Of a DNA stretch of 64,000 nucleotides, positions 61,191 through 64,000 are shown piece by piece. Both the position numbers and the translations under genes were made by a program. The notes below the pieces were generated by a model. The model saw only the letters and a list, made by a program, of their open reading frames with translations. It ran no database searches and was not told where the DNA came from. The stretch is from sequence record NC_017969.1. One strand, written 5' to 3'. This stretch comes from Escherichia phage vB_EcoS_AKFV33. The first letter of the stretch is position 1, and the number at the start of each line of letters is the position of its first letter.

Positions 61191-62948
61191 TTAGGTAAGG
61201 CGTTGAACTGTTACTCTTAATCTAGGTAGGAAAACTGCACTACCTAAACTTACGTGCATAACTACCCCTAATTCTACATTTCCATTTCCTAGATTTTTAA
61301 CTGTATATATGAAACTATTTCTACTTAGTGCATTATTAGGTGTGTATCTAAATGCAGATGTAGTATGAAAGGGTACTAAGTAACCTACAGGTAATGTTAA
61401 AATCTGGTGGAATATTGCATCTCCATTACTATAGCTATAAGCCCTTCTTCCCTGCACCTGAAATACACCGTTATTCCATGTATTAGCTGGAACACCAGCA
61501 CAATTAAGATTACCAGATATAACTTCAGTAGTAAGAATAACGGTAGCATTACCTCCTGGAATTCCTAGTCCAATAGTAGATAAAGCCACATATCTATCTC
61601 CAGTTCCTGGATAGTAAGGAGTAATATCATCCCCCATGTAAGAACTACCAACATTTCCACTAAAAAGTCTCAGAGGAACTGAAGAGGGCCCCCAAACAAC
61701 ACCATGTTCGTTACCAATAGTATTATTACTTGAGTTTACGTACCATTGCTTACCAGCTCCGAATTTGTAAATACTAATTTGAGACTTAGCCCCTCCGTGA
61801 TCTACAGGAGACCATAAACTCCCGTTACTAGAACCTACAAGTTCACACCTTGCAGTGGTATCTCCGAAGGCTCCAGTGTACGCTGCGTTATTTCCAATGA
61901 ATTCCATATCTGGCCTATAGCCTAAGTTACCAAAAGCATTTTGGTTGATAAACTTATACCCAGTATTCGGTAAACTAACCCCTTTTATAGTAAAATTAGA
62001 GGGAGAAATAAGAATATCTGAACCAGTAAAAGGATTACCAGAAATACCCATATTACCATTAGAATACCTCAGATTAAGTACATACCAAATAACCTTAGTA
62101 GGAGTTATGTTATACCAATCCTGTAATATTGTAGCATTACCAGATTGATTAGCTAAATTAGTTGTAGAACCTCTACAAACAAATCTATTACCCCCATCAT
62201 GATACATAGTATTTACATTACCAGGAAGACCTTGTCTTACCCCACCATACCCACGTATATTAGAGCTACAAACATAAAACCAATCGTGTCCTCTGTATGC
62301 TGATCCTAAAGGAGACATCCATCCTGGGTCCCAGTAATATTGGTTATTACCATCTATAGGTACTGTACTACTATTAGTAGGAAAACCCAGCTGTGCAAAA
62401 GCTTCTGCAACAGTAATACCTACTGGAGCTCCTGCACCTGGCCTAACTATACCATGATAAGTACTATGTAGGGTGGTTCCACCAGTACCATTTCTAGAGA
62501 TAGATTCTTCATGCCCTATAGATGGGTTATAGTTATATGTTCCAGATGCCAGGCTATTACCAAATGCAAATCCACTAGTTTGGGAAACGCTAGCAAAAGA
62601 TCTAAAGGGGTCTGCTTGAGTAGCAACTATAGTTTGACCTACCTTACTCTGAGTACCATTAAGAAAAGCCCTATGAGTACCATTAATCTCAATAGCAGTT
62701 AGTATAACTCTACCTGGGTCATTAGATTTAATATTTATTATGTCAGAGGGCATCTGACATACAAAAAACCCATTTCCAGCATCACCTAACCCAGCCTCAT
62801 AAGTACCATCAACTAGGACAAATGGCATATCACTATGAAAAATACTATTATTATTTGGACTATAGTGACTATTAATGTCACCACCAGATTCAGTATTTAA
62901 AGATAGTACGGTCTTACCATCGCTATATTTTCCAGCGAAAAAACCCAT
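61191..62948 (-). CDS. receptor-binding tail protein (pb5-like)
   Basis: 585 aa, Gly/Asn/Ser-rich; transcribed divergently from an llp-like lipoprotein gene, the arrangement I recall for T5 oad/llp. Confidence 0.55.
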
Positions 62949-63033: not shown

Positions 63034-63300
63034 ATGAAAAAGTTTGTGATTGCACTAGTTGCCGCAGTTATGTTATCTGGTTGTGCACCTGCTCCTAAAC
63101 CATTTTGTACGGGATTTGTAAAATCTTTTGGCGGTGCGGGAGAAGAACATTACGGTCTCAAGGTTCAAAAAGTTCGTATTAAGGGAGATCGCTTTCCAGT
63201 AGTACAGCTCCGTACTAAGTTTGGGTGGTGGGATCTCAGTCAGTTTGACCTTAAATATGGTGATTGTAAATTTAAACTAGAGCAATCTAACTACCTGTAA
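63034..63300 (+). CDS. llp: receptor-blocking lipoprotein (Llp-like, superinfection exclusion)
   Basis: 88 aa; signal peptide with lipobox (VMLSGC); small, divergent from the receptor-binding protein gene. Confidence 0.7.
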   Translation: MKKFVIALVAAVMLSGCAPAPKPFCTGFVKSFGGAGEEHYGLKVQKVRIKGDRFPVVQLRTKFGWWDLSQFDLKYGDCKFKLEQSNYL

Positions 63301-63477
63301 TTAGTATAAAGCAAAAAGACATCTAAGTAAACTAAATTTTTTATTTCTTGGATGGTATATTGGCAGAAAACACTATGCAAGAAAGTGAAAAGTCCTTCTA
63401 GGAAGTCACGAGCATGGTTGGTTATGCACAAACTATAAAATATTTTAAAATAGCATATTTACAGGAGTATGAAAGAT

Positions 63478-63606
63478 ATGTCAAATAAAAGAAAGAACAG
63501 ACGCGGAGAAGTGTACGAAGCGTGGATTAATATTTATGGATTTGGTTTTGTATTATTCCTAATCTTCGTAGGCTTTTGGTTAGCAGCTATGGCGGGGTGG
63601 ATATAA
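63478..63606 (+). CDS. small membrane protein
   Basis: 42 aa, below the track cutoff; AGGAG Shine-Dalgarno 8 nt upstream; basic N-terminus then one transmembrane helix. Confidence 0.45.
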   Translation: MSNKRKNRRGEVYEAWINIYGFGFVLFLIFVGFWLAAMAGWI

Positions 63607-63710
63607 TGGGAGTAATAATTATTGTTTTATTAGTTGTGGTAATTCTAGGGCAGTGTGTCTTGGATAACCACTTAGCTCGTATTGAACGTAAGCTACGGGA
63701 ATATAAATAA
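63606..63710 (+). CDS. small membrane protein
   Basis: 34 aa; start overlaps the previous stop (TAATG); hydrophobic N-terminal helix and basic C-terminus. Confidence 0.4.
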   Translation: MGVIIIVLLVVVILGQCVLDNHLARIERKLREYK

Positions 63711-63955
63711 TGTTTAGTATTATAATTGCTTTTATTATCGGGATACTCGCGGGAGTTTTCGGGACGACTGCGGCAATCAATAAGCATCGGGAATATATTG
63801 CGGGGGTGACGCGGGAGATTGCGGAAAGGGAGCGGAAGTTTGACGAGAAACGTGCGGAGTTTGAGAGAGAATGGTCGGATGGATCTCGGGCGTCGCGGAA
63901 GAGATTTCGTGAGTTTAAACCTGAACATCGTTTTGATGACCCTTCTATGCGCTAA
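63710..63955 (+). CDS. small membrane protein
   Basis: 81 aa; start overlaps the previous stop (TAATG); N-terminal transmembrane helix and Arg/Glu-rich C-terminus. Confidence 0.45.
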   Translation: MFSIIIAFIIGILAGVFGTTAAINKHREYIAGVTREIAERERKFDEKRAEFEREWSDGSRASRKRFREFKPEHRFDDPSMR

Positions 63956-64000
63956 TTTGACTTTTTGCCAAATTTCATAAGATTACACATGGAGGTGTGT

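Follow-up and report, generated by a model that had tools for sequence, protein, structure and literature searches.

Several phages encode, among their exclusion or moron-type genes, small superinfection-exclusion proteins of the inner membrane that are dispensable for growth, and Imm and Sp of T4, SieA of P22 and gp15 of HK97 are examples. The locus described here lies at the end of a 64,000-nucleotide stretch of DNA from Escherichia phage vB_EcoS_AKFV33 (NC_017969.1; this whole stretch is referred to as the window) and consists of three small open reading frames (ORFs), orf1, orf2 and orf3, downstream of the lipoprotein gene llp. Like Imm, Sp, SieA and gp15, their products are small, dispensable phage membrane proteins, and the cassette adjoins an exclusion gene, llp itself. 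They differ in showing no sequence similarity to those proteins, in being much smaller, with one helix each, and in being encoded by a coupled string of three to five genes.

Two other groups of small membrane proteins invite comparison. The single-helix microproteins AcrZ, MgtS and CydX, by which bacteria regulate larger membrane proteins, and the LapA domain (PF06305) resemble the trio in size and in the layout of a lone transmembrane helix that leads into a short charged stretch, but the match of orf3 to LapA falls below the Pfam gathering score and the trio is without bacterial homologues. In T4, RI and RIII act on the holin T, the main antiholin RI doing so in the periplasm. T5-like phages share a T-type holin and the trio is likewise small and non-essential; however, there is no homology to RI or RIII, the genomic neighbourhood is a different one, and the exposed parts of the trio are predicted to be cytoplasmic rather than periplasmic.

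Direct counterparts of the three genes are found in T5. The T5 llp record of 1994 (GenBank X75922) already has the small genes entered as orf1 to orf4, and the T5 genome record (AY543070) gives, at the same place, T5.159 (42 aa), T5.160 (35 aa), T5.161 (64 aa) and T5.162 (81 aa), each noted as 'contains single transmembrane domain'. In order, strand, overlaps and position between llp and the right terminal repeat, T5 orf1, orf2 and orf4 are like the window trio, with lengths of 42, 35 and 81 aa against 42, 34 and 81 aa; the window phage differs in lacking T5.161, the third gene of the T5 series. The feature is therefore not new: X75922, the T5 annotation and the PHROGs already contain it, as hypothetical membrane proteins of T5-like phages. 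A literature search found no papers on T5.159 to T5.162. The coverage of the HIDEN-SEQ study includes no T5-like phage. The toxicity screen of fHy-Eco03 concerns a phage labelled as a myovirus (vB_EcoM prefix).

Layout of the locus and orthology to T5 genes

The features of the locus, in window coordinates, are as follows.

61191 to 62948, minus strand: gene for a receptor-binding tail protein of 585 aa, divergent from llp; taken from the ORF list, in L6jm, Lindwurm and SPC35 the orthologue carries the annotation receptor-binding protein
63034 to 63300, plus strand: llp, encoding a receptor-blocking (lytic conversion) lipoprotein of 88 aa; first gene of the plus-strand block
63301 to 63477, plus strand: spacer between llp and orf1, holding a possible extended -10 promoter and the Shine-Dalgarno sequence AGGAG
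63478 to 63606, plus strand: orf1, 42 aa (TAA at 63604-63606); orthologue of T5 orf1 (T5.159); PHROG 8596
63606 to 63710, plus strand: orf2, 34 aa (TAA at 63708-63710); orthologue of T5 orf2 (T5.160), 34-aa allele; PHROG 6369
63710 to 63955, plus strand: orf3, 81 aa (TAA at 63953-63955); orthologue of T5 orf4 (T5.162); PHROG 6447 'membrane protein'
63956 to 63996: non-coding; runs from the orf3 stop to the right terminal repeat

Both the orf1/orf2 and the orf2/orf3 junctions read TAATG, giving a one-base overlap of stop and start in each case. The description given in the earlier note on this DNA, of three coupled small membrane ORFs of 42, 34 and 81 aa downstream of llp, agrees with the coordinates, the junctions and the hydropathy found here, and its suggestion that the region lies near a terminal-repeat boundary was borne out by homology. 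The annotations of T5 and SPC35 put the start of the right repeat 42 nt past the stop of the orf3 orthologue, which corresponds to about 63997-63998 in the window; the window ends 3-4 nt inside the right terminal repeat. Within the block between the orf3 stop and the repeat, AAATTTCATAAGATTACACATGRAGGTGT was conserved in five of six aligned loci.

The window DNA is 93-99% identical to that of Tequintavirus phages such as L6jm, KPP2018, Lindwurm and SPC35. The order llp, small ORFs, terminal repeat recurs in T5, L6jm, Bas26, Bas33, SPC35 and phiR2-01, and the annotation of L6jm contains exactly the three ORFs of the window. The llp product matched PHROG 1119, 'Cor superinfection exclusion protein' (E 1.8e-26), and the Pfam lipoprotein attachment site LPAM_1 (23.9 bits; cut-off 20). 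It is 100% identical to Llp of L6jm and Lindwurm, and its receptor type is not that of T5 Llp.

Each of the three small ORFs aligned with its PHROG over essentially the whole profile: orf1 with PHROG 8596 (E 6e-31, positions 1-42 of 42), orf2 with PHROG 6369 (E 6e-18, positions 1-34 of 35) and orf3 with PHROG 6447 (E 1.9e-47, positions 1-81 of 81). The same PHROGs are assigned to T5.159, T5.160 and T5.162 in the CRISPRi-ART study of T5 (PMC11879866, supplementary file 8). Identity to the T5 counterparts was 79% for orf1, 72% for orf2 and 85% for orf3. We regard the gene identities, and the orthology to T5 orf1, orf2 and orf4 (T5.159, T5.160 and T5.162), as practically certain.

Evidence that the ORFs are genes

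Conservation of the reading frames in relatives was the test that the earlier note had set for its proposal. In a comparison set of 28 fetched T5-like loci, the three frames and their overlaps were kept in every one (28/28), with pooled pN/pS between 0.17 and 0.29, so that this part of the proposal was upheld. For orf1, pooled pN/pS was 0.17 and the variable columns at codon positions 1, 2 and 3 numbered 12, 10 and 28; for orf2 the values were 0.29 and 21, 10 and 26; and for codons 1-67 of orf3, 0.28 and 26, 19 and 44. The third codon position thus accounted for 28 of 50 variable columns in orf1, 26 of 57 in orf2 and 44 of 89 in orf3.

That the ORFs are chance open frames, or that the true feature lies on the opposite strand, is an idea to which some observations lend colour: most loci have two open antisense frames across orf3, and orf1 and orf2 are unannotated in several genome records. 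The open antisense frames can be put down to the purine-rich codon usage of orf3. When all frames of the orf3 region were compared, the sense frame was the best of the six, the other five giving pN/pS of 0.97-1.39 save for the mirror frame that shares its wobble positions (0.39). The most prominent antisense candidate considered, a 113-aa ORF on the minus strand (63587-63928), was rejected, as its frame had a pN/pS of 0.97 against 0.28 for the sense frame and contained stop codons in four loci. The starts, Shine-Dalgarno sequences and overlaps of the sense ORFs are, in addition, conserved. The conservation analysis already refutes the chance or antisense explanation, to which we attach a negligible probability, and on the same comparisons the three ORFs are genuine genes under purifying selection. 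The purifying values also argue against mere neutral persistence of the cassette in these genomes. Evidence of translation, as peptides or ribosome profiling, was not found in the literature; the text of the phiR2-01 proteome paper, as far as it is available, makes no mention of these genes.

Start sites, coupling and transcription

All three genes have a ribosome-binding site. The good Shine-Dalgarno sequence that had been ascribed to the first ORF is AGGAG at 63463-63467, 10 nt upstream of the orf1 ATG at 63478, and its GG.G core was invariant in ten of ten aligned loci. Predicted duplex energies with the anti-Shine-Dalgarno sequence were -6.9 kcal/mol for orf1, -6.8 for orf2 and -4.3 for orf3, compared with a mean of -1.8 over all 1085 ATGs of the window, of which just 7% reached -6 or lower. 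An alternative start for orf1 at ATG 63469, which would give a product of 45 aa, was rejected; it lies 1 nt from AGGAG and many relatives are without that ATG, so the start of the 42-aa product is the conserved one.

Scanning of the spacers of the window, of T5 and of one further locus (L005) revealed no terminator-like site between llp and orf1. The spacer likewise gave no Rfam hit and a fold z-score of -1.5, and so no indication of a structured RNA. It does contain a possible extended -10 promoter, TGGTATATT, at 63353-63361, which is conserved in part of the relatives only: the motif is altered in four loci (L004, L015, L022 and L026), and T5 has another sequence in place of the entire stretch.

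Expression data are available for a relative, Bas33 (HildyBeyeler), as RNA-seq from a single time point that is not strand-specific. At 20 min, llp stood at 219/127 TPM, a 51-aa paralogue of orf2 at 162/137 TPM and the T5.161 orthologue at 462/408 TPM, with the orf3 orthologue at 22/13 TPM, approximately 10-fold below its neighbours (PMC13250531, Dataset S01). When second-step DNA transfer was blocked, the values for llp and the whole cassette were zero (PMC13250531, Dataset S01), indicating that the cassette is transcribed, at roughly the level of llp, and is not pre-early. The orthologues of orf1 and orf2 gave approximately 1 TPM (PMC13250531, Dataset S01), which is probably a counting artefact affecting genes under 130 nt, since cydX behaves likewise.

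We propose that transcription of these genes follows second-step DNA transfer. Since llp and orf1 have no terminator between them, the simplest source would be the llp transcript, of which the trio would form the distal part; the possible internal promoter in some phages may count against a single llp transcript. Ribosomes would then pass from gene to gene via the TAATG overlaps, and the three proteins would consequently be made together.

Predicted membrane topology

The strongest 19-residue hydrophobic stretch had a mean Kyte-Doolittle value of 2.35 in orf1, 3.08 in orf2 and 2.43 in orf3, and one helix was found in each. In the orf1 product a basic N-terminus (MSNKRKNRRGEVYEAW) leads into a transmembrane helix at the C-terminus, the hydrophobic stretch covering residues 24-42 with five K/R residues in its N-terminal flank, and the protein ends in a near-invariant WLAAMAGWI, with a few loci ending in WL. 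In orf2 the order is reversed, an N-terminal transmembrane helix preceding a basic tail (LARIERKLREYK). The orf3 product also begins with a transmembrane helix, which carries an invariant G11xxxG15xxG18, and continues as a long E/R/K-rich helix with a variable tail of 14 residues; in the AlphaFold2 model (pLDDT 76), residues 2-68 form a single unbroken helix and the tail is disordered.

In each protein the K/R residues are clustered on one side of the helix only. By hydropathy and charge bias, the three products are predicted to be bitopic inner-membrane proteins, and the positive-inside rule would make orf1 an N-in, tail-anchored protein and give orf2 and orf3 an N-out/C-in orientation. With these orientations, all of the charged segments would face the cytoplasm. 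The invariant small-residue motifs, GxxxGxxG in orf3 and AxxxG in orf1, suggest that the helices may pack together or against a host inner-membrane protein.

Distribution and variation of the cassette

Searches with tblastn gave 437 phage records for orf1 and 442 for orf3, figures close to the 440 phage records that contain the small terminase of the window at a level of at least 80% identity. Neither orf1 nor orf3 was matched in approximately 460 more distant Demerecviridae (phages of Vibrio, Klebsiella, Proteus and Aeromonas) found via the small terminase. Just the same T5-like family came out of an exhaustive profile search that covered 1.84 billion representative proteins, and word-indexed searches of 5.8 billion proteins with orf3 and orf1 as queries gave T5-like sequences only; no bacterial homologue of the trio appeared in either kind of search. 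By these searches the cassette is near-universal in the Markadamsvirinae (T5-like phages) and restricted to that subfamily. At the same position, one Sugarlandvirus has two unrelated ORFs of the 'N-terminal helix plus coiled coil' type.

Comparison with protein family collections gave few leads. For none of the three proteins was there a PADLOC defence-system family at E up to 1, a similarity in the NCBIfam models or by PDB sequence search, a Pfam match above threshold, or a match at E up to 1 to the holin, antiholin, RI, RIII or spanin families of PHROG or Pfam. No sequence relation to characterised exclusion proteins was found for the three ORFs, only the neighbouring llp matching an exclusion family (PHROG 1119). 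The nearest approach was that of orf3 to the LapA domain (PF06305), at 20.2 bits and E 5.6e-4, below the Pfam gathering threshold of 28 bits; the match covers mostly the hydrophobic helix and was found in eight of 11 members of the orf3 family, sub-threshold in all (best E 1.6e-4).

Across relatives the cassette is a string of three to five single-helix genes, and the trio of the window is a local variant, most relatives having four or five. The order is orf1, an optional 51-aa paralogue of orf2, orf2, an optional gene of the T5.161 type, and orf3. The paralogue was present in L015, L016 and Bas33 (BLASTP E 5e-7), and the T5.161-type gene in 311 of about 440 records (about 70%), its presence or absence amounting to a clean, gene-sized indel between two ATGs. 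More generally, the small genes are gained or lost whole, cleanly between start codons, and the coupling is retained. Natural truncation of orf3 was seen in one locus (L021) and an internal deletion in another (L028).

All loci have orf2, in one of two allele classes of 34 and 35 aa. The possibility that the 34-aa allele arose by a deletion fusing T5.160 to the end of T5.161 was considered and rejected, as in one locus (L026) a T5.161-like gene that is intact comes after the 34-aa allele. Over the 28 loci, the allele classes of orf1 and orf2 did not co-vary with each other or with the llp/receptor type; they assort freely, and so neither within the trio nor between it and the receptor module was there any sign of co-evolution. 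The orf3 product is conserved up to residue 67, and its last ~14 residues switch among four versions depending on the downstream neighbour, which is the repeat boundary, an ORF of 67-71 aa or one of several HNH homing endonuclease genes.

Discussion

Knock-down results for the T5 orthologues bear directly on the role of the cassette. In the CRISPRi-ART screen of T5, T5.159, T5.160, T5.161 and T5.162 were all scored 'Not Fit' (PMC11879866, supplementary file 16), and in the same study A1, A2 and the holin were Fit and the terminase subunits Fit or Semi-Fit (PMC11879866). Knock-down of T5.159 to T5.162 thus has no gross fitness cost and the genes are dispensable in the laboratory. The natural truncation and deletion of orf3, and the clean coming and going of the small genes, also speak for an accessory nature.

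The three genes are the orthologues of T5 orf1, orf2 and orf4 and are translationally coupled. We propose that they form an inner-membrane module used in competition; taken as a whole, orthology and coupling included, this reading has in our estimate a probability of roughly 45%. Within it, the accessory inner-membrane module is the better supported element and, on balance, probable; such a module would stand outside lysis, replication and virion assembly. The most speculative step is the one that assigns to it a conditional, competition-type accessory function in the inner membrane of the infected cell. Llp is described as an early-expressed superinfection-exclusion lipoprotein (PMC9586334, citing Decker 1994), and the module might form a second layer to its outer-membrane 'lytic conversion', for example by hindering DNA entry by superinfecting phages or by blunting interference that acts on the envelope. 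Drawn as it is from position and analogy, this specific exclusion or competition role is tentative and somewhat doubtful, and we found no experiment on exclusion activity of these proteins in the searchable literature. In a more particular and unlikely version, helices of the different proteins, produced along with Llp, would assemble into a hetero-oligomeric bundle and seal the cytoplasmic membrane against entering DNA, or against attack on the membrane by rival phages or by abortive-infection effectors of the host; the gain and loss of genes (three to five members), the duplication of a paralogue and the shuffling of alleles would then reflect an arms race.

Other functions for the trio can be envisaged. 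Its proteins might modulate host physiology or counter host defence by binding a host inner-membrane protein and inhibiting or re-tuning it, the candidates being a transporter, a protease such as FtsH with LapB, part of the respiratory machinery or an abortive-infection effector bound to the membrane. Larger membrane proteins are the targets of many microproteins in bacteria, and single-helix microproteins with invariant small-residue packing motifs are what the cassette encodes; being dispensable on laboratory K-12 yet near-universal and under purifying selection is, moreover, typical of conditional host-interaction genes. The LapA resemblance of most orf3 family members would fit with this, but it stays at 20.2 against 28 bits and covers mostly the hydrophobic helix, and neither similarities in PADLOC, NCBIfam and PDB nor bacterial homologues were found. 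We consider this host-directed role rather unlikely. The earlier note had raised, beside host takeover and exclusion, the possibility of lysis-timing factors, and the trio could be pictured as antiholin-like partners of the T4-T-type holin, in the way that RI and RIII serve T4. T5 does have a regulated holin of the T4 style, its holin C1 (T5.041) and spanins sharing PHROGs with T4 t and pseT.2/pseT.3, and small, non-essential membrane proteins would suit timing regulators. However, the T5 lysis genes (endolysin T5.040, T4-T-type holin T5.041 and spanins T5.044/045) lie at 19.9-23.2 kb, about 90 kb from the cassette, which is at 110.8-111.5 kb beside llp; no holin, antiholin, RI, RIII or spanin PHROG was matched at E up to 1; and the soluble parts are predicted to be cytoplasmic, with a very short periplasmic side. 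T5 is not known to show lysis inhibition. With the T5 endolysin, holin and spanins encoded elsewhere and no lysis-family match in the trio, a core lysis role is unlikely; control of lysis timing by antiholin-like partners appears quite improbable.

A role nearer to the neighbouring genes, in which the trio helps the receptor module (Llp or the biogenesis of the receptor-binding protein) or tethers or marks DNA at the terminal-repeat junction, would account for the finding that every locus has the cassette at one set place, with llp on one side and the repeat boundary on the other, and for the strongly basic segments of orf1 and orf3 that are predicted to be cytoplasmic. Against it, cloned llp alone is reported to block the receptor (PMC9586334), the alleles of the small ORFs do not track the llp/receptor type, as in T5 compared with the BtuB-type loci, and knock-down is costless, whereas packaging and injection genes score Fit. 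Help of this kind is very unlikely. Compared with these alternatives, the accessory inner-membrane module next to llp is the reading that we prefer.

The finding mainly confirms existing annotation, the T5 genes having been on record since 1994. It also draws attention to the state of that annotation, as many genome records of T5-like phages leave out the two smallest genes, or label the cassette wrongly, despite strong coding evidence. A cassette that is near-universal in one subfamily, confined to it and under purifying selection, yet dispensable on laboratory E. coli, has the pattern typical of genes whose value shows only in competition or on wild hosts. Biocontrol makes wide use of T5-like phages and, if the proposal is true, a hidden exclusion or host-interaction module beside llp would affect interference between phages in cocktails.

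The 3′ end of orf3 and the genome terminus

Comparison across the related loci showed that conservation of the orf3 family, the third of the small membrane protein genes downstream of llp, extends through residue 67. Beyond this point the family carries four alternative C-terminal tails (EFKPEHRFDDPSMR, MSESGDKPVDRRSS, AKVSGEE and FKINGKS), and the type of tail matches the 3′ neighbour, which can be the repeat boundary, a 67–71-aa ORF or an HNH homing endonuclease gene, of which there are several different ones. By this pattern, mobile endonuclease genes appear to have a hotspot of insertion at the 3′ end of orf3. In the window, orf3 is followed by a non-coding block and then by the right terminal repeat, of which just the first 3–4 nt lie inside the window, its start being placed by homology.

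Features at the 3′ end of orf3
63908–63955, + strand: variable orf3 tail, codons 67–81
~2700 in related-phage loci L012, L016–L018, L020, L021, L023, L025, L027 and L028, and 3881–4708 in L031 (Bas33): tail/neighbour switch region
63956–64000 region: 42-nt non-coding block between the orf3 stop and the repeat start (~63997–63998 by homology)

The 42-nt block contains AAATTTCATAAGATTACACATGRAGGTGT, which is kept in five of the six aligned phages, and the block with this element could be part of a signal that defines the genome end.

Because the sense frame uses purine-rich codons (GAR/CGR/AAR), two frames on the minus strand (window 63587–63928) stay open over the greater part of orf3 in almost every relative. 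An antisense gene was rejected, as the frame that holds the 113-aa antisense ORF (63587–63928, − strand) gave a pN/pS of 0.97.

Additional ORFs within and upstream of the cassette

In some Tequintaviruses, orf1 and orf2 are separated by an additional gene of 51 aa. Its product and that of orf2 have in common an MEWVII start and a RIETLL..RK end (BLASTP E 5e-7), with a coiled segment inserted in the 51-aa protein; the gene is a paralogue of orf2. The llp–orf1 spacer is longer in Epseptimavirus loci, where an additional 104-aa ORF overlapping the orf1 start is annotated; part of the extra spacer sequence is also found in T5.

Additional features in related loci
2055–2210 in L015 and L016, and 4999–5154 in L031 (bas33_0190): 51-aa orf2 paralogue
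1576–1890 in L029 (Bas26; bas26_0207): 104-aa ORF; longer spacer at 1931–2266 in L022 and 1746–2079 in L026
2566–2790 and 2794–3255, + strand, in L033 (Klebsiella phage vB_Kpn_3, Sugarlandvirus): ORFs of 74 and 153 aa

In vB_Kpn_3, from a distant Demerecviridae genus, the latter two ORFs occupy the genomic position of the cassette and adjoin a divergently transcribed receptor-binding gene. Each encodes a hydrophobic N-terminal helix followed by a coiled-coil-like segment; no sequence similarity of either to the T5-type cassette was detectable, and no llp-like lipoprotein was present among the annotations of this locus.

Annotation of the cassette and the lysis genes

The database match tables and the loci of Lindwurm (L001, 2780–3012), SPC35 and phiR2-01 revealed that the cassette is annotated inconsistently across genome records. 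In several, orf1 and orf2 are unannotated despite 100% sequence identity to the window, and elsewhere cassette ORFs are named ‘tail fiber protein’, ‘tail assembly protein’, ‘receptor blocking protein’ or ‘H-N-H endonuclease’. Database matches also placed T5-like cassette sequences under Listeria phage, Campylobacter phage, Bilophila wadsworthia and Negativicutes MAG labels; these records are mostly short contigs, and the hosts they name are probably not the true ones but the result of contamination or mislabelling.

The T5 holin belongs to phrog_860, as does T4 t, and the T5 spanins to phrog_812/739, as do T4 pseT.2/pseT.3 (PMC11879866, supplementary file 8). The lysis set of T5-like phages is therefore of the T4 type, and is interrupted by dnk and a protease-like gene.
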